Shown here in pieces: positions 1-64,000 of a stretch of DNA of 64,000 bases. This DNA comes from Candidatus Dormiibacterota bacterium (GTDB lineage Bacteria > Chloroflexota > Dormibacteria > Aeolococcales > Aeolococcaceae), in NCBI GenBank assembly GCA_963833055.1, contig CAWHWM010000005.1, positions 9,321-73,320 of the forward strand. The letters run 5' to 3'. Numbering within the stretch: the first letter of the stretch is position 1; every line of letters begins with the position of its first letter. The notes beneath the pieces were generated by a model. That model saw only the letters and a program-made list of their open reading frames with translations. It did not search any database and was not told the DNA's origin. The position numbers were made by a program, and so were the translations under genes.

Positions 1-2
1 CC

Positions 3-177
3 TGAGCTACCCGATGTTCGTGGTCTTCCTGATCCACGCACAGCTGGCAGGAACTGATTTCAGCGACGTCGCGATCAGCCTGGCCGCGTGGGCGACTCTC
101 GGCGGCCTGATCGCGCTCGCCCTCCTGCGGGCGGCGGGTGGGAGGATGGCGGACAAACCGTTTGTGTAGCCGCCTCT
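3..177 (+). CDS. hypothetical membrane protein, C-terminal fragment (5' end outside window)
   Basis: Open frame from window edge to TAG at 175-177; hydrophobic translation (FVVFLIHAQLAG...LGGLIALALL); no family recognised. Confidence 0.3.
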
Positions 178-185
178 TGAGGCGG
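170..185 (+). terminator. GC hairpin after stop of the upstream fragment (no U-tract)
   Basis: ccgcctc-tt-gaggcgg, a 7-bp perfect inverted repeat starting 1 nt after the TAG; U-less hairpins are common terminators in high-GC bacteria. Confidence 0.25.
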
Positions 186-198
186 GTACACTCGCTCC

Positions 199-657
199 AT
201 GTTGACCTGGATGTGGGTGGTCTGGCTCCTGGCAGGTCTGATCCTGCTGGGCCTGGAAGTGCACACGCAGGCGTTCTACTCGCTGTTCCTCGCGGTGGGA
301 GCCTTCGCCGCCACCGTGGTCGCGCTGTTCCCCACCGAGGTCTGGATCCAGGCGGTCGTCGGCGCGGCCGTGGCCATCGTCGGCACGATGGCGGTGCGCC
401 CGACGCTCGCTCGCATGTCGGCTCGCCACCTCGGGCCCAAGCTCACCATGCCGGGCGCTTCGGACAACCTCGTCGGGCAGCCGGCGCTCACCCTCGAAGC
501 CGTCGGCGATGAGAATCACCCCGGGCATGCCCGCCTCTTCAATGAGAAGTGGCTCGCAGTCACGTCGAATCCCGGCGGCGTGCCGGCACATCAGCAGGTT
601 ACCGTCGTCGAAGTGCGCGGCACCACCCTCGTGGTCGCGCCCCCCAAGGGAGGCTGA
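199..657 (+). CDS. NfeD-family membrane protein (short form, stomatin-operon partner)
   Basis: ORF 199-657; two N-terminal TM helices (WVVWLLAGLILLGL, FLAVGAFAATVVALF) then a beta-rich C-terminal domain; sits immediately upstream of the SPFH gene as in known NfeD-stomatin operons. Confidence 0.75.
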   Translation: MLTWMWVVWLLAGLILLGLEVHTQAFYSLFLAVGAFAATVVALFPTEVWIQAVVGAAVAIVGTMAVRPTLARMSARHLGPKLTMPGASDNLVGQPALTLEAVGDENHPGHARLFNEKWLAVTSNPGGVPAHQQVTVVEVRGTTLVVAPPKGG

Positions 658-662
658 CTCAA

Positions 663-1628
663 GTGGACAACAGTGGTCTGGTCACCGCGATCATCGTCAT
701 CGTCCTGCTCATCGTGGTGGCGATCCTCATCGGCGGCGCAGTGCGCGTGGTGCCCCAGGGATTCGCCGGTGTGGTCACACGTTTTGGACGATTTCGGCGG
801 GAATCCCAGGCCGGCCTGACGATCATCACGCCCTTTATCGACAAGCTGCTTCGCGTGGATATGCGCGAGACGCCGCGCACCGGAGACCGGCAGGACGTCA
901 TCACTCGCGACAACGTCGCTGTCGCGGTCAACGCGACCATCTTCAGCCAGGTCATCGAACCGCGGGCCGCGCTGTTCAATGTCTCGGACTATCTCGTCGC
1001 CATCGATCAGCAGGCGCGCACCACGCTCCGTAATGCGTTCGGCAACGTCAGCCTTGACGAGGCGCTGTCCTCTCGCGAGCAGATCAATGCAGCGATGCAG
1101 CAGCAGATGGAGCAGGTCACCGACAAGTGGGGCATCCGTATCAATCGCATTGAGATCGTGGATATCTCCCCGCCGGTCCAGATCCTCCAGGCGATGGCCT
1201 TGCAGAAGCAGGCGGATCAGGAGAAGCGTGCGCGGATCCTGCAGTCGGAAGGCCAGCAGCAGTCGGCCGTCAACATCGCTGACGGTAACCGGCAGGCCGC
1301 GATCAAGCAGGCGGAAGGTGAGCGGCAGGCAGCCATCCTTCGCGCGGAAGGCAACCGGCAGGCGGCCATCCTCGAAGCTGAAGGTCGCGCCCAGGCAATC
1401 TCCACCGTGTACGGATCCATCAAGGCCGCGTCGCCGGATCCGACCCTGGTGGCGATCCTCCAGCTGGACACGCTGACCAAGTTTGCTGAGAGCCCCAACG
1501 CCAAGCTGGTGGTTCCCGCCGAGACGGCCGGACTGCTCGGTGCGGCGCAGGTGCTCCGCAGCGTGCTGGGTGACGCGCCTGGCCTCGAGCCGCCGACTGT
1601 CGTCACCGTGCCGCCCTCCAGCAGCTAG
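663..1628 (+). CDS. SPFH/band-7 (stomatin/prohibitin-like) protein
   Basis: GTG at 663 preceded by GGAGG (~650); N-terminal TM then SPFH core (VVPQGFAGVVTRFGRF...DMRETP...), C-terminal coiled coil with repeated QAAI/AEG motifs. Confidence 0.85.
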   Translation: MDNSGLVTAIIVIVLLIVVAILIGGAVRVVPQGFAGVVTRFGRFRRESQAGLTIITPFIDKLLRVDMRETPRTGDRQDVITRDNVAVAVNATIFSQVIEPRAALFNVSDYLVAIDQQARTTLRNAFGNVSLDEALSSREQINAAMQQQMEQVTDKWGIRINRIEIVDISPPVQILQAMALQKQADQEKRARILQSEGQQQSAVNIADGNRQAAIKQAEGERQAAILRAEGNRQAAILEAEGRAQAISTVYGSIKAASPDPTLVAILQLDTLTKFAESPNAKLVVPAETAGLLGAAQVLRSVLGDAPGLEPPTVVTVPPSSS

Positions 1629-1636
1629 GCGGATCC

Positions 1637-3010
1637 ATGCCGGTGGCCGGGCAGAGCTCACTCTTCGGCGCGGACCCGGTCAGCTCGGCAGCACCTGGCG
1701 ACGCCGGCAGGCACGCGCCGCTTGCAACGAGGATGCGCCCACGAACGTTCGACGAGTTCGTGGGACAGCATCGGGCGATCGGTGCGGGGACGGTCCTGCG
1801 CCGGGCGGTGGACGCCGGGGAGGTGCCGTCGCTCATCCTCTGGGGGCCGCCGGGCAGCGGCAAGACGACGCTCGCGGCGTTGATCGCCGGAGCGACGAAC
1901 GCCACGTTTGAAGCCGTCAGCGCGACCAGCGCCGGGGTGGCGGATCTGCGCAAGGTGATGGAGCGAGCGAACGAGCGGCTGCGCACCGGGAGGCGGACCG
2001 TGCTCTTCATCGATGAGATTCACCGCTTCAACAAGGGCCAGCAGGACGCGGTGCTCCCGCACGTCGAGAACGCGACCGTGACCCTGCTCGGCGCAACCAC
2101 GGAGAACCCGTCGTTCGAGGTCAATGCGGCACTGCTGTCACGAAGCAGGGTCATCCGCCTCGAAGCGCTCGACGCCGGCGACCTTCGCCGCCTCATCGAG
2201 CGCGCGCTGACGGATCCCGAACGAGGGCTTGGCGCCCAGCACGTGGCCGTCGACAGCGAAGCCATCGACCGGCTGGTCGCGCTGTGCGGTGGCGACGCGA
2301 GGATCGCGCTCAACTCGCTGGAGCTCGCCGTGCAGGCGGCGGTGCCCGATGCCACCGGGGCGGTGCGGGTGACGGTCGCGGACATAGAAGGTGCTTTGCA
2401 GAACCCAGCGCTGCTCTACGACCGTGCCGGCGATCAGCACTACTGGCTGATCTCGGCCTTCATCAAGTCGGTCCGGGGCAGCGACCCGGACGCCGCGGTG
2501 TACTGGCTGGCCCGGATGCTGGAAGCAGGGGAGGATCCGCTCTTCGTCGCGCGGAGGTTGGTGATCCTCGCAGCCGAGGACATCGGTCTCGCCGATCCGC
2601 AGGCGCTCGGTGTGGCCGTTGCCGCGCAGCAGGCCGCGCACTTCATCGGGATGCCCGAGGGGTACCTGCCGCTCAGCGAGGCGACGCTGTACCTGGCGAC
2701 GGCGCCCAAGAGCAACAGCGTGCTTCGAGCCTATGGAGCAGCCGTGGCCGACGTGGCCGAGACCCTCCATCAGCCGGTGCCCCTGCACCTCCGGAACGCG
2801 GTCACGGGGCTCGGACGTTCGATGGGCTTTGGCAGCGGCTACCGATACGCGCACGACCATGAAGGGGGCGTCGTCGAGCAGGAGCACCTGCCGGAGCAGC
2901 TCTCCGGGCATCGGTACTACGACCCCTCGGACCATGGTGCCGAACGCGAGATCGCGGAACGGCTCGAAACCAACCGTCGGAAGCTGTCGGGGCGCGAATC
3001 AGGGTCTTAA
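1637..3010 (+). CDS. rarA: replication-associated recombination protein A (AAA ATPase RarA/MgsA)
   Basis: Walker A GPPGSGKTTLA, Walker B LFIDEIHRFNK, conserved C-terminal MgsA helical domain (PLHLRNA...GYRYAHD). Confidence 0.9.
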   Translation: MPVAGQSSLFGADPVSSAAPGDAGRHAPLATRMRPRTFDEFVGQHRAIGAGTVLRRAVDAGEVPSLILWGPPGSGKTTLAALIAGATNATFEAVSATSAGVADLRKVMERANERLRTGRRTVLFIDEIHRFNKGQQDAVLPHVENATVTLLGATTENPSFEVNAALLSRSRVIRLEALDAGDLRRLIERALTDPERGLGAQHVAVDSEAIDRLVALCGGDARIALNSLELAVQAAVPDATGAVRVTVADIEGALQNPALLYDRAGDQHYWLISAFIKSVRGSDPDAAVYWLARMLEAGEDPLFVARRLVILAAEDIGLADPQALGVAVAAQQAAHFIGMPEGYLPLSEATLYLATAPKSNSVLRAYGAAVADVAETLHQPVPLHLRNAVTGLGRSMGFGSGYRYAHDHEGGVVEQEHLPEQLSGHRYYDPSDHGAEREIAERLETNRRKLSGRESGS

Positions 3011-3247
3011 GACGATCGGCCTAGCAGCGCCGGGATAGCAAGGGGCTGACCATCGTCGGGACGGGAATTCATTCTTTCGAAACGCAAGTCCCCCTGATAG
3101 GCGGGCGGGCGCCGACCCAGTTCAGTGGTTTACCCTCGCGGGCTCCCCCTCCCCGCGGCACCGGGTGTATCGCGGTTCTGCTGGGTCGGTGCCACCGCCG
3201 ACTTTCTTTCTCCAGAGCGAGAGATATCGGTTAGGCTGGGATCGACT

Positions 3248-3889
3248 GTGGAAGTTACGCACCCCACTCCCATTCGAGTGCTCATTGTCGATGACCACCC
3301 GTTGGTGAGGCGAGGGCTGACCTCCCTCCTCAATGGGACCACCGATATTCGCGTTGTCGGCGCTGCGTCTGACGGCGAAGAGGCGGTGGCCTATGCCGTG
3401 GAGGAGCATCCCGACATCGTGTTGATGGACATCTCCATGCCGGGGATGAACGGATTCGAAGCGCTGCGACGGATGCTCAAGGCTGTCGCCGGCACCAAGG
3501 TGGTAATGCTCACCTCGTACTCCGAACACGACATGGTGGTGGAGGCGATCGACAACGGCGCCGTGGGCTTCCTCCTCAAGGACACCGAGCCGCAGGAACT
3601 CCTCAACGGCATCCGTTCGGCTGCAAAGGGCGATACGCCGCTTTCACCCAAGGCTGCCAAGGAGTTGCTGCGCGACCGCGTCAAGCGGCGTCCGCTCGAT
3701 GACCTGACACAGCGCGAGCTCGACGTCCTGACCCTCGTGGGGCGAGGGATGAGCAACAAGCAGATCGCCTGGCGCCTCGGCATCAGCGAGAAGACGGTGA
3801 AGGCGCATCTCGGATCGGTGTTCGACCGCCTCGGCGTCGAGGACCGTGTGCAAGCTGCGCTATGGGCGCAGCGGCACGGGATCATCTAG
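3248..3889 (+). CDS. LuxR/NarL-family response regulator (REC + LuxR HTH), no kinase adjacent
   Basis: GTG 3248; REC domain with LIVDDHPLVRRG and phospho-acceptor region VLMDISMPGMNG; C-terminal LuxR HTH LTQRELDVLTLVGRGMSNKQIA...SEKTVKAH. Confidence 0.85.
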   Translation: MEVTHPTPIRVLIVDDHPLVRRGLTSLLNGTTDIRVVGAASDGEEAVAYAVEEHPDIVLMDISMPGMNGFEALRRMLKAVAGTKVVMLTSYSEHDMVVEAIDNGAVGFLLKDTEPQELLNGIRSAAKGDTPLSPKAAKELLRDRVKRRPLDDLTQRELDVLTLVGRGMSNKQIAWRLGISEKTVKAHLGSVFDRLGVEDRVQAALWAQRHGII

Positions 3890-3907
3890 CCCCGTCGTTT
3901 CCGGCCG

Positions 3908-5135
3908 CTACTCCGCAGCCGCCGCGACGCGAATCGCACGTGCGAACGCGGCGGAGGTCTCTTCGAGATCCGCGGCTGTGTGCACCGACGAGCAGAACGC
4001 GCTTGTGTTGAGGATGTCGACACCCTCGGCGCGCATGGCGTTCGCAATTCGCCCATGGGCTCGCGGATCCGACAGGAAGATATGCAGGATGCTCGCAAGC
4101 CGGCGGATGGTCCCGTCGATTCCGGCCGTGGCGAGCGCGGCGGTCCAGTCGGCGGCGAGGCTCACGGCATACGCCTCAGCGGTGCGCTGCGGCACGCCGT
4201 CGGCAACCAGCCGCAGCGTGGTGACCCCCGAGCTTGCGCTGAGCGGATTGGCGTTGAACGTTCCCGGATGGGGGATCGTCGTGGCGAGCAATTCGAGGAG
4301 ATCCGAGCGGCCGGCAACCGCTCCGCCAGGGAGCCCACCGGCCATCACCTTGCCGAGGACGCTGACGTCCGGCGTGATCCCGAGCACCGCCTGCATGCCA
4401 CCAGGGGACACGCGGAACCCCGTGACCACCTCATCGAAGACGAGCAGCGTGCCGGTCGCCGTGCACGCGGCTCGTGCGGCGGCGATGAAGGCGGGATCGA
4501 GCGGCAGCTGCCCGTAGTGCGCGCCTGACGCTTCCATGATCACGGCTGCCACATCGCCGCGAGCGAGGGCCGCCTGCAGTGCGGCGGGATCGTCGGTCCG
4601 TACGACCTCCGTGAGCTCGCCGAGGACTTCAGGAACGCCGATCGGCGTCCTGGTGGTGCCGTCCGCGTCCAGGTATGGGCTCACCACGTCGGACCATCCG
4701 TGAAAGTGGTCCTGGAGCTTGACGATGCGATCCCGGCCGGTCGCGGCCCGCGCAACGCGGAGCGCGAGCATCACCGCCTCGGTGCCCGACGCGGTGAACC
4801 TGACCTTCTCGGCCGACGGGATCAGCGACGTGATCAGCTCCGCCCACTCGACCTCGAGCGGATGCGCGGCGCCGTAGTGGGTGCCGTGCGACACCTGCTC
4901 GCGAACGGCCTCGACCACGGCGGGATACGCGTGCCCGAGCAGGAGGGCGCCGTGTCCCATCGTGTAATCGATGAGCTCGGTGCCGTCGATGAGCCACTTC
5001 CTCGATCCGCTCGAGCGAGCGACGTAGATGCGCGGGTCATAGGTCCGCGAGGCTGTGCGTGGCGCCTCCCGGGAGCACCCGGCGTGCGCGCTCCGCCAGG
5101 TCGGCGTGGGCACGCGTGTGCACGGCCTCGGTCAC
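3908..5135 (-). CDS. glutamate-1-semialdehyde 2,1-aminomutase-like class-III aminotransferase (paralog; apparent N-terminal frameshift near 5045)
   Basis: 401-aa ORF 3908-5113 with PLP fold-type I motifs (FDEVVTGFRV, LGKVMAGGLP); conserved N-terminus (LAERARRVLPGGATHSL) lies in another frame upstream, so one indel is inferred. Confidence 0.7.
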
Positions 5136-5165
5136 AGACACGTCCAGAGGATACCCGGCAAAATG

Positions 5166-5236
5166 AGGCGACGGTGGGAATCGAACCCACGATCAGGGTT
5201 TTGCAGACCCGTGCCTTACCACTTGGCTACGTCGCC
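5166..5236 (-). tRNA. tRNA-Cys (anticodon GCA)
   Basis: Reverse complement GGCGACGTAGCCAAGTGGTAAGGCACGGGTCTGCAAAACCCTGATCGTGGGTTCGATTCCCACCGTCGCCT folds as a cloverleaf: 7-bp acceptor, T-arm GTGGG/TTCGATT/CCCAC, anticodon loop CTGCAAA, discriminator U. Confidence 0.9.
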
Positions 5237-5349
5237 TCGTCACCGGAGTGCGCCATTGTCGCCCACCGGCGCACCGGCGCAGCCACGGCAGGCGCCTCGC
5301 GGTCTGCGCGGTCGGTCGATCCGCGACCCGTCTGTAGAGTCTGTGGGCG

Positions 5350-6342
<993 letters not shown>

Positions 6343-6482
6343 GGACGCGAGCGCGGGCGATCGCTGCAACGGGCGCGGTACCCGGATCGTCCCTCCCGAG
6401 CGCTGCCTGCACACGCGCTGTCTGTTCAACGCAGACGTGAGTACGATTCGGTTTGAGACGCGGGCTGAGGTAGGAGACGCCG

Positions 6483-9400
6483 GTGGTCTGTTCGAACTGC
6501 GGTGAGACCAATGCTGTGGAGCGCAAGTTCTGTGGCGAGTGCGGGGCTCCGCTCGCGCAGCTCTGCGCCGCGTGCGGCGCGCGGAATCCTGTCGGAGTCA
6601 AGTTCTGCGGGGAGTGCGGTTCGTCTCTCGGAGCATCTGGGGACGGAGCCGGCGTCTTACCACCGAAGCCTGCGACCGTCGGCTCGGCGTCCACGGTGCT
6701 GGCCGAGATCCGCCTGGTCTCCGTGCTCTTCGCGGATCTTGTCGGATTCACGACACTCTCGGAGTCGCGCGATCCAGAGGAGGTGCGTGATCTCCTCTCG
6801 CGATACTTCGACGTCTGCCGGGGACTGATCGAGCGCTACGGCGGGACGGTCGAGAAGTTCATCGGCGATGCGGTGATGGCGGTGTGGGGCGCACCCACAG
6901 CCAACGAGGACGACGCTGAACGCGCCGTGCGAACCGGCTCTCGAACTCGTTGCGGCAGTCGCTGAGCTCGGCGCGCGAGGTCGGCGCTCCGGACGCTGCG
7001 TGCGCGCGCCGGGATCGCTCACCGGCGAAGTGGCGGTCGACCGCTCGGCGACGACGGCCGAGGGCATGGTGGCCGGAGACACTCGTGAACACGGCGTCGC
7101 GCGTTCAGTAGCGCCGCCGAGCCGGGCATGCGTGCTTGTCGACGAGGCAACCATGCGCGCAGCAGCGCCGGGCGATCGCCTACGTCGAAGCCGGCGACCC
7201 TCGACCCTCAAAGGGAAGGCAGGAGCCGGTCGCGGTATGGGAGGCGCAGCGTGTCGTCGCCCAGCGCCAAGGGATCGGCGCGGTCGAGAGCGGCTCGAGC
7301 CACCGTTCGTTGGACGGGAGCGAGGAGCTCCGATTGCTCAAGGAGCTGTTCCATGCGACCGCTCGAGAGCAACGTCGCTCGTCTGGTGTCGGTGACGGGC
7401 CTTGCCGGAATCGGGAAGAGCCGGCTCGCCTGGGAGTTCCTCAAGTACGTCGACGGCCTCGCGGCAGACGGTGTACTGGCACGCAGGGACGCTCCGCTGC
7501 GTACGGTGAGGGCATCAGCTTCTGGGCGCTCGGCGAGATGGTGCGGATGCGGGCGGGGATCACCGAGGGCGAGGATCCTGCTCAGGCCCGCGCCGAAGCT
7601 CAGCGCCTCGGTCGCCGAATTCGTCACCGATGCCGACGAGCGGCGGCTGGATCGAGCCACGCGCTCGCGTATCTGCTCGGACTCGCCGAAGCACCGGGCG
7701 GCGACCGAGAAGAGCTCTTCAGCGCGTGGCGCACCTTCTTCGAGCGCATCGCGGACGCACGGGCCAACGGTGCTCGTGTTCGAGGATCTGCAGTGGGCGG
7801 ACCCGGGGCTGATCGACTTCATCGAGTCGATCGCTCGAGTGGTCGCGGAGTCGCCCCTGTTCGTGCTCACCCTGTCCCGACCCGAGCTGCTGCAGCGGCG
7901 CCCCACCTGGGGCGCAGGGCAGCGTTCATTTACGGCGCTGCATCTCGAGCCCCTGCCGCCGGCGGCGATGGCCGCGTTGCTCCGCGGCTTTGTCGCCGGA
8001 CTTCCGGAATCAGTGGTGGAGCACGTGCTGCACCGCGCCGAAGGAGTGCCGCTCTACGCGGTGGAGACGATCCGGATGCTGGTCGACCGAGGTCAACTGG
8101 TGGAGCGCAACGGGGTGCTGACGGTCACGGGAACGCTCGAGTCGCTCGACATCCCCGACACGTTGCACGCCCTCATCGCATCGCGCCTCGACGGGGTGAC
8201 GGCGGAGGAGCGCTCGCTGCTCCAGAACGCCTCCGTCATCGGTCAGAGCTTCTCGATCGCGGCGCTCGCCGCCGTCTCGGGCCGGAACCGAGCGGCGCTG
8301 TCCGCCCCACTCCGGGACCTGGTGCGCAAGGAGCTTCTGGCGCTCGACACCGATCCCCGTTCGCCGGAGCGCGGCCAGTACGGCTTCGTTCAGGGCCTGA
8401 TTCGTGAAGTCGCCTACGGGACACTCGCGAAGCCGGAGCGGCGGGCGAAGCACGTCGCTGCCGCATCGTACTTCGAGGGCCTCGACGACGAGGAACTCGT
8501 CGGCGTGGTGGCGACCCACTACGCCGAGGCACAGCGAGCCACCGCGATGGCCCGGAGCGAGATGCGCTCGTCGAGCGGGCTCGGGAGTGGCTCACGCAGG
8601 CGGGCCGCCGCGCACTCGCGCTCGGTTCGTCCGAACAGGCTCTGACGTACCTGGAACGGGCGCTAGAACTCACCGGGGAAGGCGGCACCAGAGCGGCGCT
8701 CCTCGACCTGGCTGGCGAGGCCGCGCTGCACTCCGATGCGTTCGAGCGCTCCGTGGCGCACTACCAGGCGGCGGCGGCCCTGCACCAGAGCGCAGGCGAC
8801 CTCGATGCCGCCGGTCTCAGCACGGCGCGCCTGACCTGGGCGCTGGGCGACGGACTGTCGCGGGTTTCCGAAGCGATGGAGCTCGCCGAGCAATTCCTGG
8901 CAAAGCTTGGTGAAACCGCCAACGAGCGAGCGCGTGCCGACGTTGCGGCGACTCTCGCTTCGTTGCAGAGCTCGACCGGCGCCTCCGACGAAGCGCTCGC
9001 CTGGGCTGAGATGGCGTGCGTGCTGGCCGAACGCATCGATGACGCCGAACTGCTCGGCCGAGCGATCGGCTCGAAGTCAGCCGCGATGTTCCGCCTCGGA
9101 CGCCACCGCGAAGCCGTGATGCTCGCTCGTGGCCGGATGGCACTCGCTGAGAACGCCGGGTCACTGGTTGAGTGCAGTGTCGCGACGCTGTACACCTCGA
9201 TCTTCGTGCTCGATGACGACCCGCACGAGGCGATCAGGCTCCAGCTCGAAGCCGCCGATCTGGCGCGGCGGGCCGGTGTCCGCAGCCTCGAGACGGTGAA
9301 CCTGCTCAATGCCGCGGAAGGCGCGATCATGCTCGGGCATTGGGACGATGCGCGATCCGCGTTGGACGCGCTCAGCCAGCGCGACCTCGCGCCCGCCCGT

Positions 9401-10014
9401 CAAACCCAGTTCGAGTTGTGTGATGCGGTGCTTGCGGCGTTGACCGGTCGTACCGCCCACGCCCTCGGCCGCCTGGAATCGTCAGCCGCCGCGGCGACGA
9501 CCGAGGATCGGACGCGCGCTCCAACAATTACCTCGGCCGGAGTCAGGTGCATCTGGCCATCGGTGACCTCGAGACTGCCTACCAGGAGGCCGCCACAGCT
9601 CTCGAGGCGGAGCCCTCCGGCATCAACAGCCCAAGCGCGCTGGCGGTTGAGATGCACGCCGCACTCTGGCTCGGGGATGCCGCGCGGGCGCGTCTGGCGC
9701 TCGATGCGATGCAGGCGTTTCGCGGCCGCTGGATGGCTGCGACACGGCTGACCGCAGAGGCCGGGATCGCGTCCCTGGAGGGCCGTTACGAAGCGGCCGC
9801 GGCAGCGTATGCACGCGCACTCGAGGCATGGCGAGAGCTGGATTCGCCGCTCGATCTGGCCATGTGCGGTCTGGACCGCGCATCGGTTCGCGGCGCCGGC
9901 GTCCCTGCAGGCGATGAAGATGACGAAGCTCGAGAGATCCTCACGCGCATCGGCGCGGTTCCACTGCTCGCGCGGCTCGACCGAGCCGTCGAGGCGGCGA
10001 GCAAGGCGGGCTGA
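6483..10014 (+). pseudogene. zinc-ribbon / class-III adenylate-guanylate cyclase / AAA(NB-ARC-like) ATPase / TPR regulator, broken by at least 10 frame changes
   Basis: Consecutive ORFs in all three + frames carry, in order: CxxC x4 zinc ribbon, cyclase motifs FADLVGFT and GDTVNTASRVQ (the latter only after a +1 shift near 7083), EPVAVWEA, P-loop GLAGIGKSRLAWEF, YGEGISFWALGEMVR, VLVFEDLQWADPGLIDF, then TPR-like helical repeats to 10014. Confidence 0.75.
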
Positions 10015-10146
10015 CTAGCGCTCGTTGTAGACCGATGGCATCGGGTGCCGCGATCTTGCCACTTGCACCTTTTGGTGCGATCGACAATACTGTGATGACT
10101 GGCGCGGGGGCGCCGGAAGGGAATGATTCGACCAGGGGGTTTGGAA

Positions 10147-24074: not shown

Positions 24075-24192
24075 GCTCGTAAGCCATTGACCAGGTCCCT
24101 CCAGGACGCCCCGTGGTTGCAAGGAATCCTACTGAACGCCTGTAGAATCAGCGCAACGTTAGACGCAAACCAGTGGGACCGTCAAGCGAACG

Positions 24193-36387: not shown

Positions 36388-36402
36388 AACCTATACTCGC
36401 TC

Positions 36403-39316: not shown

Positions 39317-39323
39317 ACGCCGT

Positions 39324-40313: not shown

Positions 40314-40316
40314 TCA

Positions 40317-41114: not shown

Positions 41115-41118
41115 CGCC

Positions 41119-50802: not shown

Positions 50803-51200
50803 GAAATGTGTCTCCCCTTTACCGATTTCTCTTCCTGAGGCCCCCTCTCGATTCGATCGGCCTCGTTGATTCAAATACGTATGCCCTGCGGCGTTCCCGA
50901 TGAGTCTCCGTCCGTTTACTACCATTAAGCAATGAGCTTGCTTCGAACGGAATCATCCCCCTATGTGATGGTTTGTTCTGCCTCGATGACAGCCTCGCGG
51001 ACGCGTGACGATGCGTCGCGAAACGACCCCCGATTGACTGGCTCCGTCAGCCACCTCCCCCTGCTCTGGTGCGATTGCTCCATTTTGCAAGGGGCGCCAG
51101 ATGTGGCGTCAATGAGGATCAGTCAATGATTACGATCTCTTTGTACGATGGATCCTCGAGCCGGCGCCTGGTCCGAATTGGAAGGTCGGTCGCCCGGCGA

Positions 51201-54832: not shown

Positions 54833-56293
54833 ATGAACGAGCCGGTTCCCGGTCTCGAGGAGACGCGGCGCCGTCTCGCTGACCACGACGTCGTGGCGGT
54901 GGTCCTGGAGCTCCCGATCGGCGACGTCACGCCCGTCGGCGCGATGCGCGCGCTCGGGACCGACGCGAGCTGCTTCCTGCTGGAGTTGGTCGAAGGCAGC
55001 GGTGCGATCGCTCGCTGGTCGATGCTGGGGCACCGTCCATCGCGCGTCATCAGTGACTCCGGCGATGGCGACGATCCGCTCGGGATCCTCGATCGCGACG
55101 TGGCATCGCTCGCCGCCGCGTGTGCGCCAGGGATGGGCGCGCCGTTGCTCGGCGGCGCCGTCGGCTTTCTCACCTACGACGCTGCGCGCCGTTATGAGCG
55201 GCTGCCATCGCCTGCGAACGACCCGCTTGGCCTGCCATCCCAGTGGTTCGCGATCTTTGACACCGTGGCGGTCTTCGACCACGCACCGCATCGTTTGCTG
55301 CTCTCCAGCTGCGTGCATCGCGGCGATGCTGCGGGGATCGACGCCGCGTACGAACGGGCGATCACGCGGATCGAGACCTTGCGCGCCGCTCTGCTCGCGG
55401 CGCCACCGGCGCCGACGCCACAGCTTGCCGGCACGCCCGTGGACGTCGGAGCGCATGACCACGAGGCCAATCTCTCGAGGACCGAGTTTCAGGACCGCGT
55501 GCGTCGCGCGCTCGACTACATCGCCGCGGGCGATATCTTCCAGGTCCAGATCTCGCGGCGATTCGCGCTGCCGCTGCAGGCGGATCCGTTCGATGTCTAC
55601 ATCGCGCTCCGCGCCATCAACCCGAGCCCGTACATGATCTACATCGCCACGCCGGACTGCACGCTGGTGGGGGCATCACCGGAGATGCTCGTGCAGGTCA
55701 CGGGGCAGATCGTCCGGTACCACCCGATCGCCGGGACGCGCCGGCGGGGCCGCACACCCGAGGATGACGAGCGGATGGAGCGCGAGCTCCGCGCCAGCGA
55801 CAAGGAGGCTGCGGAGCACCTCATGCTCATCGACCTCGGCCGCAACGATCTCGGCAGGGTCTGCGCCACCGGCAGCGTGCGCGTCACCCAGCACATGGAG
55901 GTCGAGCGCTACTCGCACGTCATGCACCTCGTGAGCAGCATCGAGGGGACGCTCGATGACACGTGCGACTCGCTCGATGCGCTGCGCTCCTGCTTTCCCG
56001 CCGGAACCGTGACCGGGGCGCCCAAGATCCGTGCCATGGAGATCATCGCCGAGCTGGAACCCGAGGTTCGCGGGCCGTACGCGGGCGCGATCGGCTATGT
56101 GGGGTACGGCGGTGACCTGGACACAGCGATAGCGCTTCGCACCATCGTCATCCGGGACGGAACCGCGTATGTGCAGGCCGCGGCTGGCATCGTGGCCGAC
56201 TCGGTGGTGGCGGAGGAGACCGTGGAGATCGACAACAAGGTCGCCGCTCAGATCCTTGCGGTGGAGGAGGCGAACGCGTGGGCTCGGGGCTGA
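54833..56293 (+). CDS. trpE: anthranilate synthase component I
   Basis: LLESxEG-type region (LLELVEGSG), chorismate-binding motifs IAGTRRRG, GAPKIRAMEIIAELE, GAIGYVGYGGDLD. Confidence 0.9.
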   Translation: MNEPVPGLEETRRRLADHDVVAVVLELPIGDVTPVGAMRALGTDASCFLLELVEGSGAIARWSMLGHRPSRVISDSGDGDDPLGILDRDVASLAAACAPGMGAPLLGGAVGFLTYDAARRYERLPSPANDPLGLPSQWFAIFDTVAVFDHAPHRLLLSSCVHRGDAAGIDAAYERAITRIETLRAALLAAPPAPTPQLAGTPVDVGAHDHEANLSRTEFQDRVRRALDYIAAGDIFQVQISRRFALPLQADPFDVYIALRAINPSPYMIYIATPDCTLVGASPEMLVQVTGQIVRYHPIAGTRRRGRTPEDDERMERELRASDKEAAEHLMLIDLGRNDLGRVCATGSVRVTQHMEVERYSHVMHLVSSIEGTLDDTCDSLDALRSCFPAGTVTGAPKIRAMEIIAELEPEVRGPYAGAIGYVGYGGDLDTAIALRTIVIRDGTAYVQAAAGIVADSVVAEETVEIDNKVAAQILAVEEANAWARG

Positions 56294-56892
56294 GTGGTCA
56301 GGTGCTCGTCATCGACAACTACGACTCGTTCACCTTCAACCTCGTGCAGTACCTGCGCGAGCTCGGTGCGACGGTGGCCGTCGAACGCAACGACGCGCTG
56401 TCCGTCGCCGACGTCGCGGACGCACAACCCTCCGCCATCGTCATGTCGCCGGGACCGCGAGTCCCGGAGGAGGCGGGCATCTGCGTCGACCTCGTTCGCG
56501 AGCTTGGTGACGCCATCCCGATGCTCGGCGTCTGCCTCGGTCATCAGGCGATCGGCGTCGCGTACGGCGCCCAGGTCGTCCGAGCACCGGCAGTGGTCCA
56601 CGGCAAGGTGGGTGCTGTGCACCACGCCGGCGCAGGCGTGCTTCGCGGCCTCGAAGATCCGTTCATGGCCACTCGCTACCACTCACTGGTCGTCGCGGTT
56701 GCGGGACTGCCCGACGTGCTCGAGGCGACTGCGTGGAGCGACGATGGCCTGATCATGGCCATGCGCCACCGTGCCTTCCCGGTGGAGGGCGTCCAGTTCC
56801 ATCCCGAGTTGATCGGCACGCCGGTGGGACATGCGCTGTTGCGCAACTTCCTGGAGACCGCGGGCGTCAGCGCCGGCGCGGTGCTCGCGTGA
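56278..56892 (+). CDS. trpG: anthranilate synthase component II (glutamine amidotransferase)
   Basis: VIDNYDSFT, catalytic GVCLGHQ, HPE; start GTG 56278 (16-nt overlap with trpE) or GTG 56302. Confidence 0.9.
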   Translation: MGSGLSGQVLVIDNYDSFTFNLVQYLRELGATVAVERNDALSVADVADAQPSAIVMSPGPRVPEEAGICVDLVRELGDAIPMLGVCLGHQAIGVAYGAQVVRAPAVVHGKVGAVHHAGAGVLRGLEDPFMATRYHSLVVAVAGLPDVLEATAWSDDGLIMAMRHRAFPVEGVQFHPELIGTPVGHALLRNFLETAGVSAGAVLA

Positions 56893-57687
56893 GCAGAGCA
56901 GGCGGCACGCTCGACGCCATCGCGCTTCGCAAACGTGCCGAGGTCGAACAGCTTCGCTGCGCCGAGGCAGCGCTCTGGGCGAAAGCCGAGTCGCTGACTC
57001 CTGCGCGGGAGATCGGACCCGCGTTGCGCGGCGGCACGATCATCGCGGAGATGAAGCGCCGCTCACCGAGCGGCGGGACTCTTCGCCCCGAGCTCGACCC
57101 GCTCGCCATCGCGCGCGACTACGCCGGTTGTGGCGTCGCCGCGATCTCGGTCCTGACCGATGGACCCGACTTCGGCGGCTCGCTGGACGACCTCGCCGCC
57201 GTCCGCAGGGTGGTGGACATTCCCTTGCTGCGCAAGGACTTCACGCTCGACCCCGTGCAGATCGCCGAGGCGCGCGTGGCAGGTGCGGACTGGGTGCTCC
57301 TCATCGTCGCGATCCTCGACCAGGACGCGCTCGACAGCTGCCTCGCGGGGGCTGCGCGAAGCGGAGCGCATGCAATCGTCGAGGTGCACGACGTCGATGA
57401 GGCGGCGCGTGGCCGTCGCAGCCGGCGCCACGTGCATCGGCATCAACAACCGCAACCTCGATACGCTCGTGACCGACATCGAGACGTTCGCTCGCGTGCG
57501 CCGTGTGATCCCCGACGGCGTCATCTGCATCGCCGAGTCGGGCGTGCGCAGTCCCGAGGATGTCGCGCGCCTGGTCGGCGAGGGAGCGGATTCCGTCTTG
57601 ATCGGCGAGGCGCTGATGCGTGCCGCATCGCCGGCCGCCGCCTGCACCGCGATGGTGTCTGCCGCGCGCGGCGCCGCACGCTCGTGA
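56889..57687 (+). CDS. trpC: indole-3-glycerol phosphate synthase, apparent frameshift near 57395
   Basis: GTGA overlap with trpG; IAEMKRRSPS, LRKDF in frame 0; C-terminal GINNRNLDTL...ICIAESGV ends TGA 57685-57687 in ORF 57160-57687. Confidence 0.8.
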
Positions 57688-58325
57688 TCGTCAAGGTGTG
57701 CGGCGTGCGGACGCCCGAGGTGGCCGAGGCTGCGCTCGATGCCGGCGCCGACTGGATCGGCCTGATGCTCGTGCCGAAGAGCTCTCGGTGGGTGGACGAC
57801 GATGCGGCTCGTGCAGTTGCGCGAACGGTCGCAGATCGCGCCGACCTGATCGGCGTGTTCGTCGAGCCCACCGCCGCCGAGTGCGACGACGCAGCCTCGC
57901 GGTATGGCCTCGCCGGAGTCCAGGTGCACGGAAACATCAACCACAGCCTCATGATGGCGTGCTCCGTTCCCGTCATCCCTGTCATCAACGTGCAGGATCG
58001 CCGGCATGCCAACACCATCGACTGGCCGCCCGACACGCTCCTGATGCTCGACGGGATGCCCGACCGTGGGGCATTGCCCGGAGGCACCGGACACCGCGTC
58101 CCGCTCGAGTGGGCCGCCGATGTCGCGCGTCATCGCGAGATCGTCCTCGCGGGCGGGCTCGGTCCCGATGACGTGGCCGAGGCAATCGCCGCCGTGCGTC
58201 CAGCGGGTGTCGACGCGTCGAGCCGCCTGGAACTGCGCCCGGGAGAGAAGGATCCGGAGCTCGTCCGGCGTTTCGTGCTCGCCGCCCGGGATGCCGCCGC
58301 ACGCGTCAGGATCGATCCGCGGTGA
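57684..58325 (+). CDS. trpF: N-(5'-phosphoribosyl)anthranilate isomerase (stand-alone TrpF)
   Basis: GTGA overlap with the trpC stop; [25 protein letters not shown]. Confidence 0.8.
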
Positions 58326-59497
58326 GCGTGCACGCGACGGGGCGTTTCGACGGGTATGGCGGCGCCTACGTGCCGGAGACACTGGTGCCTGCACTGGAGG
58401 AGCTCGAGGCTGCGATGGCGGAGGCGTTCGCCGACGAAGCGTTCACCGCCGAGCTCCGCCGCTGGCTCGCGGAATTCGCGGGCCGGCCGACTCCGATCAC
58501 GCACGCACGCCGCCTCACCGCCGCGCGGTCCGGCGCGCAGATCTGGCTCAAGCGCGAGGACCTGCTGCACACGGGCGCGCACAAGCTGAACAACGCGCTC
58601 GGCCAGGTGCTGCTCGCGCAGCGCATGGGCAAGCGGCGGATCATCGCGGAGACAGGAGCGGGCCAGCATGGTGTTGCCACCGCGACCGCTTGCGCGGCAC
58701 TCGGCCTCGGATGCCTCGTGTACATGGGGCGTGAGGACATGCGCCGCCAGTCGCTCAACGTCTACAAGATGGGGCTGCTCGGCGCCGAGGTCGTCCCTGT
58801 CGACAGCGGTTCCGCGACGCTCAAGGACGCGACCAACGAAGCGATCCGGGACTGGGTGGCGCACGTGCGCGACACCCACTACGTCATCGGCAGTGCGGTC
58901 GGCCCGCATCCCTACCCGTCGCTTGTCCGCCGGCTGCAGCGCGTGATCGGCGACGAGGCGCGCGAGCAGATGCTGGCCACTACCGGGCGTCTGCCAGCGG
59001 TCGTCGTTGCATGCGTGGGTGGCGGCAGCAACGCCATCGGCATGTTCGCGGCGTTCCTCGAGGATGACGTCCAGCTGATCGGTGTCGAAGCTGCAGGCCG
59101 CGGCCTCGACTCGGGCGAGCACGCGGCGCCGCTGTCACGAGGCCGCCCCGGGGTGCTGCACGGTTCGCTCAGCTACCTCATGCAGGACACCGGCGGTCAG
59201 GTGCTCGCTACCCATTCGATCAGCGCCGGCCTCGACTATCCAGGTGTCGGGCCCGAGCACAGCGCGCTTCGCGACAGCGGTCGCGTCGTGTACCGCGCGG
59301 CGACCGATACCGAGGCGCTGGCTGCGTTTCACGAGCTGTGCCTGCTCGAAGGCATCATCCCCGCGCTCGAGTCGTCGCACGCTGTCCACATCGCTGCCGA
59401 GAGTCGCCCGCGACATGACGTCTGACGACGTGGTCCTCGTCTGCCTCAGCGGGCGCGGTGACAAGGACATCGATACCGTGCGCGAGTACGACGCCCG

Positions 59498-59501
<4 letters not shown>
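58322..59501 (+). CDS. trpB: tryptophan synthase beta chain, apparent frameshift near 59395
   Basis: GTGA overlap with trpF; [13 protein letters not shown] (PLP Lys), [15 protein letters not shown]; conserved C-terminus [19 protein letters not shown] in ORF 59082-59501. Confidence 0.85.
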
Positions 59502-60317
<816 letters not shown>

Positions 60318-60321
<4 letters not shown>

Positions 60322-61624
60322 GCCAGGAGCGCGTCTCTCCCGCGTCGCATATCGACGGTGACGTCACCGTTCCGGGCGACAAGTCGATCACCCACCGGGC
60401 GCTCATCCTCGGGTCGATGGCCAAGGGCCGCAGCTATGTCGGCAACGGATCGCCGGCTGCCGATGTCCTTGCCACTGCGGCCTGCCTGCGCGCCTGCGGG
60501 GTGTGGGTGCGCGACTTTCCACCCGACCGCTTCGCGCTCGACGGCGCCGGTGTCGGCATGAGCCTGCGCAACCCGGACACCGTGCTCGATTGCGCCAACT
60601 CCGGCACCACCATGCGACTGCTCGCAGGGGTGCTCGCCGGCACCGACATCGACGCCACGCTCGACGGCGACGCGTCTCTGCGCGGCCGCCCGATGCGTCG
60701 CGTGGCGGAACCGCTCCGCGCCATGGGGGCAAGCGTCGATGTGTCACCTGAGGGAACGGCGCCGATGCGCGTCCGTGGGCGAGGTCTCCTCGATGCCATC
60801 ACCTGGGAATCGCCGGTGGCGAGCGCGCAGGTGAAGTCCGCAATCCTGCTCGCCGGCCTTGCCGCGGACGGACCGACCACGGTCATCGAGCCGCTCCCGA
60901 CCCGCGACCACACCGAGCGGATGCTGCGAATGTGCGGTGTGGACGTGGTGACGGACGGCGCGGCAGTCACCGTGCATCCGGCACCGCTGCAGCCGTTCGG
61001 CATCCGGATCCCGGGGGATCTCAGCTCGGCGGCATTCTTCCTCGCGCTCGCAGCTTCACGCCCCGGGTGGCGCGTCAGGTGCCCCTTGGTGGGCCTGAAT
61101 CCGGGACGGACCGGGAATCCTCGACGTGCTCGAGGCCATGGGGGCAGACGTACGGATCGAGCCGCGCGACCCGGCCGGCGGGGTGGAGCCCGCTGGTGAC
61201 GTGGAGGTACGCGGCACGGCGCTGAGGGGAATCGTGATCTCGGATGCGCTCACGGTTCGCTGCATTGATGAGCTCCCGGTGATCGCCGTGCTTGCGAGTC
61301 AGGCTGAAGGTGACACGCAGATCCGCGACGCGGGCGAGCTTCGCAACAAGGAGACCGACCGGATCGCCCTCCTCGAGACAGGGCTCCGTGTGCTCGGGGT
61401 GCCCTGCGAGAGCACGCCCGAACTCGCTGACCATCCACGGGCCGGTCAAGCTCCGGGGAGCGCATCTCGATGCTGCCGGTGACCACCGCTTCGCAATGGC
61501 CTGGGCCATCGCCGGGGCCCTGGTCGAACCGGGTGGTGGAGACACCGTCATCGACGGCGCCGACGCCGCGGCGGTGTCGTACCCGAACTTCTACGCGGAC
61601 CTGCGCAGGCTGCTGACCCGCTGA
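60318..61624 (+). CDS. aroA: 3-phosphoshikimate 1-carboxyvinyltransferase (EPSP synthase), two apparent frameshifts (near 61110 and 61425)
   Basis: GTGA overlap with trpA; [23 protein letters not shown] in frame 0; middle in ORF 61126-61482; C-terminal [10 protein letters not shown] in ORF 61292-61624. Confidence 0.8.
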
Positions 61625-61628
61625 GGGC

Positions 61629-62084
61629 TCACTCGTCGAAGCGCAGGAGCAGGTGGGGACCGTCGCGCGCCTCCACGACCTTGAGCCAGCGCACGGCGAT
61701 CGCCACGGGAAGGACGTCCGGGCCTTCCACATACGCCTCGGCGCCCGCGGCGTGCGCGGTGAGGCGCCGGGCCAGTTCCATGCGCTGACCAGGGTCTCGG
61801 AGCACGGACGCGGTGCCACCGCCCTGAATCCATCGGGAGGCATTCCCGGGCGAGCACATGAAGGCCACGCGCGGGTCGGCCTCGAGCTCGCGATGCACCC
61901 GCGACCCGCCGCGTGCGGCGATCAGCAGCCGGATCCCGTGCTCGGTGCGTTCGGGCGCGAAGAACACGCCGGCGACGTGGGGACCTGCCGCGCTCGTGGT
62001 GGCCAGCGCAATCGTGTCGTATGCACGCAGCGCCCAGAGCGCTCGCTCGACGGCGGCATCGTCCTGTGGCGAAGGCGTGCTCAT
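61629..62084 (-). CDS. pyridoxamine 5'-phosphate oxidase-family (FMN-binding split barrel) protein
   Basis: ATG 62084 overlaps the fpg stop (ATGA); motif TIALATTSAAGPHVAGVFF typical of the PNPOx-like fold. Confidence 0.65.
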   Translation of the reverse strand: MSTPSPQDDAAVERALWALRAYDTIALATTSAAGPHVAGVFFAPERTEHGIRLLIAARGGSRVHRELEADPRVAFMCSPGNASRWIQGGGTASVLRDPGQRMELARRLTAHAAGAEAYVEGPDVLPVAIAVRWLKVVEARDGPHLLLRFDE

Positions 62085-62938
62085 CGCAGCAGTTTGCTCA
62101 GGCGCCGGTCCGCGAAGACGCGGCCTCCGGTCTGGCATCCGGGGCAGTACTGAAATGACCGCGATGCGAGCGACACCTCGCGCACCGTCTCTCCGCAGAC
62201 GGGGCACGGCAGCCCAGTGCGGCCGTGCACGCGCATCGACTGCCGTTTCCCGTCCTTCAGCGCCGCCGGATCCGAGTCCACCGCCAGTGCGACAGCGGCG
62301 CTCAGCACGTCTCGCGTCGCGGTCGCGAGCCGCTCGAGCTCGTCAGGGGTCAGGGCGTCGGCATGCCGGAAGGGGGAGAGCTGCGCCGCGTGCAGGATCT
62401 CGTCCGAGTACGCGTTGCCGATGCCGGCGATGACCGCCTGATCCGCGAGGACGCTCTTGAGCGTGCCGTGTTGCGCTGCCAGTAGCGTTCCGAGGCGGGC
62501 CCCCGAGAGGCTCGGATCGAGTGCGTCGATGCCCAGGCGCGCGACGCCGGGGACATCGGTGGGGTTCCTCACGACGGACACGGCGAGCCGCTTGTCGGTG
62601 CCGTGCTCCGTGATCTCGAGGCTCCCGCCGTCGACCAGCGTGACGATGACTGCGAGCGGGCCTCGAAGCGACGGCCGCGCGTTGGTGGGGGTGTCGCGCA
62701 GGCGGATCCAGCCCCCGCGCGCGAGATGCACGATCAGGTGCAGGGGCGGCGCCTCGAGGTCGATGAACTTCCCGCGACGAACGCACCCTGCGAACGCCAG
62801 GCCCTGCAGTGCGGTCACCGGCGGATCGAACGTCTTGAGCACCGCGACCGAGCGAACGCTGACGTTCGCGACCGTCCGGCCGCGGAGCCGGGCGTCAAAT
62901 GACCGGCACAGCGCTTCCACTTCGGGCAATTCAGGCAT
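62081..62938 (-). CDS. fpg: formamidopyrimidine-DNA glycosylase family (Fpg/Nei)
   Basis: N-terminal MPELPEVE (catalytic Pro2/Glu3), H2TH region, C-terminal zinc finger CPVCG...CPGCQ; start coordinate +/-1 nt uncertain from my manual counting. Confidence 0.8.
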   Translation of the reverse strand: MPELPEVEALCRSFDARLRGRTVANVSVRSVAVLKTFDPPVTALQGLAFAGCVRRGKFIDLEAPPLHLIVHLARGGWIRLRDTPTNARPSLRGPLAVIVTLVDGGSLEITEHGTDKRLAVSVVRNPTDVPGVARLGIDALDPSLSGARLGTLLAAQHGTLKSVLADQAVIAGIGNAYSDEILHAAQLSPFRHADALTPDELERLATATRDVLSAAVALAVDSDPAALKDGKRQSMRVHGRTGLPCPVCGETVREVSLASRSFQYCPGCQTGGRVFADRRLSKLLR

Positions 62939-63037
62939 CGCGGGTGAAAGAATGCGCCCGGTGCCGAGAAGCGTGGCTGCTACGCGCGCCGTCGGGCCGC
63001 GGCGGAGCCGTGCGCATGGGGCGGAGGACGTCCTCTG

Positions 63038-63662
63038 CGTGCCTCGCTCCACGATCTTTCCGGACGGCGCCTGGCACGGGCTGATCGCGAAGGGGCTCGA
63101 GCGAGTGCTCCGCACCGTGCATGCGACATCGGAGTACCGCCCCCGCGCTGAGATCGAGGACGATCCCGCGCTCCAGCAGATCATCCCGTACTGCGTGGTC
63201 CACCATCCGGAGGACGACACGTACCTGCTCACGCGGCGGCTGCGCCGCTCCAGTGAGAAGCGCCTCCATCACCTGTACTCGCTGGGCATCGGCGGCCACG
63301 TGAACCCCGGCGACGGCGAGCGCGAGGACCCGGTGGTCGGGGGCCTGCGCCGTGAGTGGGCCGAGGAGATCCGGTGTCCGACCTCGGCCCGGGCCAGCCT
63401 CGTCGCCATGCTCAACGACGATTCGAGCCCGGTCTCGCGGGTGCACCTCGGTCTCGTGTTCCTGGTCGAGCCGGCAGGCGGCGCCGTCGAGGTGCGTGAG
63501 GTCGAGAAGCTGGAGGGGGAGTCGCTGACACTCGAGGCGATGCGGCGCCACTACCTGAGCATGGAGTCCTGGTCGCAACTGGTCTACGACGACCTGGTCG
63601 CCGGCGCGCAGACGCGCGTCGAGAAGAGCCCGCTCATCGTGGATCTCGAACCGGAGCCGTGA
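63038..63662 (+). CDS. NUDIX hydrolase
   Basis: Nudix box GGHVNPGDGEREDPVVGGLRREWAEEI; no in-frame ATG upstream, start probably GTG between 63040 and 63110. Confidence 0.65.
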
Positions 63663-64000
63663 GCGGGACCGTGCCCGCGTCCCCGGAGTTCTTCCGGACA
63701 GCGGAGGATCTCTCGAGGTGGTTCGCTGCCAACGCCGACGCGTCCGAGCTGTGGGTGGGGTTCTGGAAGAAGGGCTTCGAACGCCCCGGCATCACCTATG
63801 GCGACGCCGTGGATGAGGCGCTCTGCAACGGCTGGATCGACAGTGTCGTGCGGCGGGTGGACGAGGCGAGCTACATGCTCCGGTTCACGCCGAGGCGCCC
63901 GAAGAGCAACTGGACGGAGGCCAACCTCCGGCGGGTGGCGGAGCTCCGCGCTGCGGGCCGGATGCGCCCAGGCGGAGAGGCCGCCGTTCGTGCGGCCCAG
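63659..64000 (+). CDS. YdeI/OmpD-associated (OmdA-like) family protein, 3' end outside window
   Basis: GTG overlaps the NUDIX stop (GTGA); open frame to window end; FWKKGFERPGITYGD...RRPKSNWTEANL matches family pattern by recall. Confidence 0.55.
   Translation, partial: MSGTVPASPEFFRTAEDLSRWFAANADASELWVGFWKKGFERPGITYGDAVDEALCNGWIDSVVRRVDEASYMLRFTPRRPKSNWTEANLRRVAELRAAGRMRPGGEAAVRAAQ

Follow-up and report, generated by a model that had tools for sequence, protein, structure and literature searches.

The window analysed here is a 64-kb stretch of DNA from a soil bacterium. It lies on a contig of 403,640 bp in a metagenome-assembled genome of Candidatus Dormibacterota. Frame breaks were found in about 16 of its genes, including tatA, rph, acyP, trpC, trpB, trpA and aroA. 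Alignment to relatives revealed about 40 indels that are private to the window, each of 1 nt (about 35 insertions and about 5 deletions; Table 1). The first-pass annotation had counted about 25 indels; these are real, but the number was too low. Its gene names (the above seven and a hemL paralog) were all correct, and each site that it listed was recovered within 0–30 nt, except that the one placed at ~31330 lies 160 nt away, at 31170.

Table 1. Single-nucleotide lesions located in the window, with the position given by the first-pass annotation where there was one.
Start	End	Strand	Lesion	Gene or feature	First-pass position	Remark
5051	5051	-	1-nt insertion (G)	class-III aminotransferase gene (hemL paralog), near 5' end	5045	
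6934	7834	+	burst of ~25 single-base insertions	cyclase/AAA_16 part of zinc-ribbon/adenylate-cyclase/ATPase/TPR regulator gene		private to window
7853	7853	+	1-nt deletion, C-run 5->4	regulator gene		alignments to relatives
8544	8544	+	1-nt deletion, CC->C	regulator gene		alignments to relatives
9512	9512	+	1-nt deletion, CC->C	regulator gene		alignments to relatives
18762	18767	+	1-nt insertion (AAA or GGG run)	DAO-family FAD oxidoreductase gene	18768	
21031	21031	-	1-nt insertion (C)	APC amino-acid permease gene	21015	no homopolymer
31170	31170	-	1-nt insertion (G)	conserved hypothetical membrane-protein gene, near 3' end	~31330	
41118	41118	.	1-nt deletion (AA->A)	short intergenic spacer, cyclophilin gene/hemL		not listed earlier
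42603	42603	+	1-nt insertion (T)	tatA, after amphipathic helix	42595	
43732	43734	+	1-nt deletion	rph	43740	
43959	43963	+	1-nt insertion (GGCGGGC)	rph	43960	destroys 11-residue protein motif
48968	48968	-	1-nt insertion (T)	ABC-transporter ATPase gene	48940	
51262	51262	-	1-nt insertion (A)	PucR-type regulator gene, near 3' end	51270	no homopolymer
53535	53535	+	1-nt insertion (G before CAAAG)	acyP	53540	
54268	54269	+	1-nt insertion	class I/II aminotransferase gene	54275	
57404	57407	+	1-nt insertion (G)	trpC	57395	
59397	59399	+	1-nt insertion (C)	trpB, near 3' end	59395	
59776	59778	+	1-nt insertion	trpA	59795	no homopolymer
59937	59938	+	1-nt insertion	trpA	59935	no homopolymer
61113	61115	+	1-nt insertion (G in G-run)	aroA	61110	
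61416	61421	+	1-nt insertion	aroA	61425	

Frame breaks were called by three agreeing methods: a self-trained codon-usage Viterbi path (used in place of a plain GC3 frame plot, which was too noisy), Pfam domains and nucleotide alignments. At the junctions, Pfam domains are continuous over the joined frames. This was seen for the FAD oxidoreductase (DAO match 1–353/353), the class I/II aminotransferase (Aminotran_1_2, 3–361/361), trpC (IGPS, 1–252/254) and, across both of its junctions, aroA (EPSP_synthase, 3–416/417). Similarly, the N-terminal motif RARRVLPGG of the hemL paralog and the Pro/Ala-rich tail of TatA fall in another frame, as does the membrane-protein C-terminus '...VAALVLAAWARSFGTEVRRLGAL*', which matches its orthologs in L166 and L087. 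The apparent junctions at 659, 1620, 3907, 11143, 13178, 14647 and 27594 were rejected as frameshifts; they are gene boundaries, shadow ORFs or a tRNA.

One of the checks suggested by the first-pass annotation was to compare the window with a close genome. We carried out this comparison and found that same-species assemblies carry the genes intact. The same-species contigs are 94.6–99.4% identical to the window and thus represent other strains, not the same genome. Against those built from short reads (94.6–99.4% nucleotide identity), the window showed no indels other than those at the frame breaks and one at an intergenic base. L170 (99.4%) and L171 (98.4%) showed a single gap in 6.1–6.3 kb, at 5051; L181–L183 showed four in 4.3–5.6 kb, at 41118, 42603, 43734 and 43960; and L164 (94.6%) showed one in 1786 nt, at 21031. 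All the lesions covered by these short-read contigs (6/6) were missing from them, and the contigs had no private indels of their own. The hemL paralog (408 aa in L170 and L171), the permease (531 aa; protein P0121 of L164, 98% identical), TatA and Rph (240 aa in L181–L183) are intact there. As a control, five short-read relatives had 0 private coding frameshift indels in 15 kb, in which the window has 10; the apparent frameshifts of these relatives lie in non-coding DNA or beside masked N runs.

We also compared the window with a long-read sibling (ENA contig_21640; 96.7–98.2% identity). It lacks 11 of the 13 testable window lesions, namely those at 5051, 18767, 31170, 42603, 43734, 48968, 51262, 53535, 54268 and 57407 and the whole burst, and only 21031 and 43960 are common to both. 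The sibling has private indels in its aldo-keto reductase gene, hem genes and permease gene (25 in 1.76 kb), and in the long-read contig L081, 18 insertions form a burst in the region corresponding to window 16.4–19.2 kb.

Single sites were compared as well. The extra base at 18762–18767 is missing from L165, L081 and same-species L168, and that at 31170 from same-species L168. The insertion at 42603 is missing from L179 and L181–L183, in which TatA has 104 aa. The intergenic deletion at 41118 is private to the window relative to eight short-read contigs and L179, and the rph deletion relative to L084–L090, L179 and L181–L183. The PucR-type regulator (400 aa), the acylphosphatase (94 aa) and TrpC (265 aa) are intact in L179. 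The sites at 59.4–61.4 kb were compared with relatives of ~78–80% nucleotide identity only, and a homolog query with a chimeric Rph+TrpA+AroA sequence yielded long fused proteins alone, with no single gene that was nearly identical.

When the private bases were deleted, full-length ORFs were obtained in 15/15 genes checked; for tatA, the assessment instead relied on its tail and orthologs. In-frame stops after repair, nonsense mutations and multi-base lesions were not seen in the affected genes. The bias toward insertions was significant (binomial p = 2 × 10−7 for 36:4), and the insertions showed no preference for a codon phase (12/11/10, n = 33). The first-pass annotation had remarked that several sites sit at short homopolymers. 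This is only weakly true, as 7/33 insertions touch an identical base (~48% expected by chance, p = 0.0015) and most do not; thus, the homopolymer association expected of an artefact was absent for the insertions (n = 33). Its example in acyP (caaagaagg) was misread, since a G is actually inserted before caaag. The ~5 deletions all lie in runs of C, G or A.

The densest damage is found in the regulator gene, which encodes a cyclase/ATPase/TPR protein of 1169 codons and bears ~28 lesions, with the burst spanning 900 nt inside it. At least 10 sites had earlier been suspected between 6483 and 10014, which agrees with the burst and the three deletions that follow it; no frame breaks were found between 6483 and 6934. 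The clustering is extreme, with 20 events in 1 kb, whereas none of 20000 simulations gave more than 8. In alignments, the burst insertions are missing from L081, L082 and L083 and from same-species contig L169, and the orthologs are intact (1168–1169 aa). The repaired gene has 1173 open codons and no stop codon, and it matches P0001 from end to end with 91% identity (79–99% per 100-aa block). Private substitutions were raised in one 300-nt bin only (34 vs. 12–17).

Two sources of the insertions were considered and rejected. An unpolished raw-read segment patched into the consensus at the burst would be rich in substitutions, but the burst consists essentially of insertions only. A consensus retaining both alleles of a strain SNP predicts insertions adjacent to third codon positions, which the observed phases do not support. 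Among same-species strains, the regulator gene is present, truncated or absent, and a search for direct repeats flanking it found none of note. Because the gene is strain-variable, few reads probably lie behind the consensus at the burst. At this locus, the sibling contig has a chimeric-looking join in which window 8249 is followed by a second copy of 6233–6341.

Apart from 21031 and 43960, the lesions occur in this assembly alone; repairing them gives back intact conserved genes, and lesions of the same class are found elsewhere in sister long-read contigs. Because independent same-species assemblies carry the genes intact, we read almost all of the frame breaks as errors and not as dying genes. 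On these sequence comparisons, we consider that almost all window frame breaks are assembly consensus errors rather than mutations of the organism (probability about 0.93). The same-species comparison thus supports the first-pass annotation, which had preferred sequencing or assembly errors of the indel type to gene decay.

Two error modes can be seen. The first is the spurious insertion of single bases, mostly unlike both neighbouring bases, at a background rate of ~0.03% that rises to ~2.8% in one 900-nt stretch. The second is a few run-length under-calls, in which a run of C, G or A is one nucleotide too short. The platform was probably long reads, judging from contig size and from the 'contig_N' naming of the siblings, and the burst may have been caused by poor effective coverage or a mixture of strains.

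That indels fragment genes in assemblies and metagenomes from long reads has been well documented (PMC12007338; PMC8692599). The window resembles the Nanopore/PacBio assemblies and metagenome-assembled genomes of the Kastor paper (PMC12007338) and the Antarctic soil Nanopore metagenome (PMC8692599) in that 1-nt indels split conserved genes, are not found in short-read assemblies and vary between assemblies of the same taxon, and in that correction de-fragments the genes. However, the indels in published long-read profiles are mostly linked to homopolymers (PMC12007338), whereas in the window the ratio of insertions to deletions is 7:1, most insertions lie away from homopolymers, and there is also an extreme local burst (~25 in 900 nt). 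Apparent frameshifts have also been corrected by allele-specific assembly (PMC8445201). A mosaic consensus from collapsed haplotypes or strains of this kind is similar in that the burst lies in a strain-variable locus and the sibling has a chimeric-looking join, but differs in that the window insertions have no codon-phase preference.

The sites 21031 and 43960 need separate consideration. They cannot be called random errors, because they are shared with the long-read sibling; they are either systematic context-dependent errors or real shared polymorphisms. The extra base at 21031 is missing from L165–L167 and present at the same spot in the long-read sibling L168, and that at 43959–43963 is missing from L084–L090 and the short-read same-species contigs L181–L183 and present in the long-read sibling L179. 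Most lesions might then be errors while these two are real frameshift alleles of the permease gene and rph, inherited by both strains. The window and contig_21640 are 98.2% identical, compared with ~97% to the short-read contigs, so that, phylogenetically, the two could share a derived mutation, and both long-read contigs have the extra base where 3–4 short-read contigs do not. However, exactly this pattern is also expected from a systematic error of the platform, such as one at a modified-base motif, and site 21031 falls within an error burst of L168 itself. We regard this mixed origin as unlikely. If real, the rph allele would have a counterpart in the rph-1 frameshift of E. coli K-12. The two breaks are present in both long-read assemblies, which come from different samples; that they segregate as real alleles in a natural Dormibacterota lineage, or that the burst marks a truly hypermutated strain-variable regulator gene and not a poorly supported consensus, seems to us quite improbable.

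Recent and widespread gene decay would make the frameshifts true mutations and the genes young pseudogenes. Several genes of one pathway are affected (trpC, trpB, trpA twice and aroA twice), the regulator gene carries many lesions, and events are enriched beyond 42.5 kb (13/17, p = 0.001); relaxed selection would give multiple hits per gene. However, the lesions are missing from same-species contigs, apart from 21031 and 43960 in the long-read sibling, and two other long-read contigs carry similar bursts in genes that are intact in the window. Bacterial pseudogenes reportedly show a deletion bias, as Mira, Ochman and Moran are said to have described in 2001, and the ratio of 35:5 insertions over deletions, all of 1 nt, is the reverse. 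The mixture of nonsense codons with deletions of varied length that decay would produce was not observed among the window lesions, protein identity is retained after repair without in-frame stops, and the affected genes have not lost protein conservation or codon bias as under relaxed constraint. Genuine frameshift pseudogenes, such as those of Mycobacterium leprae-type decay or E. coli K-12 rph-1, are similar in having breaks in biosynthetic genes and rph, but the window differs from them in that most of its breaks are not common to conspecifics, stops and larger deletions are absent, insertions predominate and the coding signal is kept. We consider gene decay highly improbable.

Programmed recoding, by ribosomal frameshifting or transcriptional slippage that restores the frames, has in its favour the mere existence of +1/-1 frame changes, but the ~40 sites share no common motif and mostly lie away from slippery runs, and the orthologs in all relatives are single-frame without a conserved slippery shift site, which leaves it a negligible chance.

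If the lesions were real, they would imply that the organism had suddenly lost the synthesis of tryptophan and aromatic amino acids, and the evidence rules this out. With almost all frame breaks read as consensus errors, the consequences concern practice rather than biology. Automated annotation of this contig, as of the sibling public long-read contigs of metagenome-assembled genomes, will yield split, truncated or fused genes, and the fragmented products of the broken genes are already in public protein collections. The positions in Table 1 permit direct correction of the window sequence. Otherwise, statistics on pathway completeness or pseudogenes would be biased for this poorly known phylum.

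Using a codon-usage model derived from 37 confident ORFs, we computed a seven-state Viterbi path across the window; the translated path segments were then joined and scanned against Pfam. Unbroken Pfam matches spanned the frame changes (DAO 1-353/353, AA_permease_2, Aminotran_1_2 3-361/361, IGPS 1-252/254, PALP), and single matches to RNase_PH, Trp_syntA and EPSP_synthase (3-416/417) each enclosed two frame junctions. When ORFs of relatives were searched against the window by tblastn, adjoining matches changed frame at the same points, and the relatives themselves were single-frame. Nucleotide alignments to the relatives located each lesion, that is, each window-private single-base indel that breaks a reading frame, within a few bases. 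The path, the Pfam matches and the alignments confirm and extend the pervasive single-nucleotide frame changes described in the first-pass annotation. In the nucleotide alignments all of its indel sites were recovered with offsets of 0-30 nt, save that placed at about 31330, which proved to be a +1 event in the gene of a conserved membrane protein, at position 31170. Its estimate of at least 10 sites in 6483-10014 was far exceeded, with about 25 single-base insertions between 6934 and 7834 and three 1-nt deletions, all in a zinc-ribbon/adenylate-cyclase/AAA_16/TPR regulator gene.

Selected features of the window
Feature	Position	Remark
Class-III aminotransferase genes besides hemL	3.9-5.1, 16.2-17.5, 22.7-24.1 kb	Three in window
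Regulator gene	6342-10057	+ strand; 3.7 kb; within-species presence/absence polymorphism
Regulator 1-nt deletions	7853, 8544, 9512	All inside gene
Non-coding private 1-nt insertions	24080, 24152	Stretch 24080-24152
Tandem membrane-protein genes	32711-35063	- strand; four small paralogs with Pro-rich tails
Haem cluster	36400-42411	Intact; hemA-hemC-hemD-hemB-cyclophilin-hemL, then tatA-tatC-rph-rdgB
Intergenic 1-nt deletion (AA->A)	41118	Between cyclophilin stop and hemL start codons; beyond the first-pass list
Non-coding private 1-nt insertions	51010, 51096, 51159	Stretch 51010-51160
trp operon	54833-61616	trpE-trpG-trpC-trpF-trpB-trpA, aroA directly after; stops/starts overlap

The window (64 kb) has a G+C content of about 68% and two tRNA genes. 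Both its genes and its nearest relatives assign it to Candidatus Dormibacterota. The best genome matches of its TrpB are Dormibacterota MAGs (85-88% amino-acid identity), whose sequence follows the window colinearly from 48.3 to 64 kb (78-80% nucleotide identity). By exact sequence, proteins of the window are recorded at NCBI and ENA from a 403,640-bp contig. trpD is absent from the trp cluster. In a homolog search the top match was a TrpA-AroA fusion (P0241, 708 aa) encoded on a 1-Mb contig; a frameshift may in turn have produced this fusion. One of the tandem membrane-protein genes has a DUF4190 match, and no other family match was found for the four.

The strongest comparisons come from short-read contigs of the same species. 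Two JGI contigs, L170 (99.4% identity) and L171 (98.4%), span window 1-6341, and the sole indel against each is the window's extra G at 5051, in an aminotransferase of 408 aa in both contigs. In the permease gene, the single gap against L164 (94.6% nucleotide identity; protein of 531 aa, 98% identical) is the window's extra C at 21031. Over 38.7-44.5 kb, L181-L183 (96.8-97.3%) differ by indels only at 41118, 42603, 43734 and 43960, and encode a TatA of 104 aa and an Rph of 240 aa. In the multiple alignments these short-read contigs had zero private indels. The intergenic deletion breaks no ORF and is seen in none of nine other contigs compared with the window. As a control over a 15-kb stretch, ten coding frameshifts were counted in the window vs none in five short-read relatives, whose private non-triplet indels were all non-coding, at gene boundaries or beside masked N runs. 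The sites at 59.4-61.4 kb were compared exclusively with relatives of 78-80% nucleotide identity. The five non-coding insertions probably reflect the same error process; they were left out of the counts, and relatives vary there too.

Once private bases were deleted or missing bases restored, fourteen genes besides the regulator became full length, and canonical motifs were regained (an 11-residue motif in Rph, LNPGRTG in AroA). The repair test picked the wrong frame in tatA, which was judged from its Pro/Ala-rich tail and the intact 104-aa orthologs. The regulator, intact in relatives (1168-1169 aa), became one open frame of 1173 codons with no stop, 91% identical end to end to its ortholog P0001 with one gap.

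All lesions were single-base when set against the closest sequence, with about 35 insertion events vs 5 deletions (binomial p = 2 × 10−7 for 36:4). Inserted bases (C14, G13, A7, T2) were near genome composition, and insertion points were spread over codon phases (12/11/10). Only 7/33 insertions touched an identical base vs about 48% expected (p = 0.0015), and each deletion shortened a run of C, G or A. It may be speculated that this combination is the signature expected of a run-length-compressed consensus. The homopolymer example offered earlier in acyP (caaagaagg) did not hold: a G is inserted between T and CAAAG, and the A run is unchanged. Events were strongly clustered: one kilobase held 20, whereas 20000 simulations never gave more than 8. 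Of the 17 events outside the regulator, 13 lay beyond 42.5 kb (p = 0.001).

The regulator varies between strains. L170, 99.4% identical in the flanks, lacks the gene entirely and has 4 nt instead. Another same-species contig, contig_21640, leaves the window sequence at 8249, runs through 6233-6341 a second time and resumes at 10058, a join that looks chimeric. Because the gene is strain-variable and this join looks chimeric, fewer or mixed reads may lie behind its consensus. Window-private substitutions in the burst were raised in one 300-nt bin only. No direct repeats flanking the gene were found in the window. A consensus retaining both alleles of strain SNPs was also considered; the codon-phase test gave it no support.

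Contig_21640 (ENA ERZ25039522, 682,628 bp, presumed long-read) is 96.7-98.2% identical to the window. It lacks the lesions at 5051, 18767, 31170, 42603, 43734, 48968, 51262, 53535, 54268 and 57407 and the whole burst. It carries its own 1-nt indels in an aldo-keto reductase gene, hemB, hemL and a class I/II aminotransferase gene, all intact in the window, and, within the permease gene, its own burst of 25 single-base indels over 1.76 kb (19.7-21.1 kb). Its own 1-nt indels are scattered over two further stretches (L169, L179). The presumed long-read contig_74659 (ERZ25039595) carries 18 private single-base insertions in the part that corresponds to window 16.4-19.2 kb; the window's own aminotransferase gene in that part is intact. 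Proteins called on these two contigs are fragmented (for example Aminotran_3 77+119 aa, Aldedh 320+169 aa, ALAD 160+58 aa). Since the lesions differ between the three sequences, they are a property of individual assemblies, not of the organism.

The first-pass annotation had proposed comparison with close genomes, and same-species contigs lack the lesions at the compared sites, save 21031 and 43960 in contig_21640. At these two (the latter within 43959-43963), the extra base occurs in both long-read contigs, the window and contig_21640, and in no short-read contig. A real mutation inherited by both strains would give this pattern, and the two are each other's closest relatives; judged from the alignments, either a shared real allele or a recurrent, systematic, context-dependent error may be responsible.

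For the lesions as a whole, the same-species contigs, the repair test and the spectrum support the first-pass preference for indel-type sequencing or assembly error, and the sequence pattern fits consensus error rather than gene decay. Bacterial pseudogenes pick up stop codons together with deletions of varied length, and lose their conservation. Real decay of the broken genes does not fit: every event is 1 nt long, insertions predominate, and the coding signal is perfectly preserved. Each ortholog is encoded in a single frame and no motif is common to the sites, which excludes programmed recoding.

The size of the contigs, and the 'contig_N' names that the siblings carry, suggest that the window comes from a long-read assembly. 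Gene-fragmenting indels are well documented in long-read assemblies and metagenomes (PMC12007338; PMC8692599). The frame breaks are an artefact of low biological interest, with practical consequences when genes are annotated on this contig or on its public siblings.
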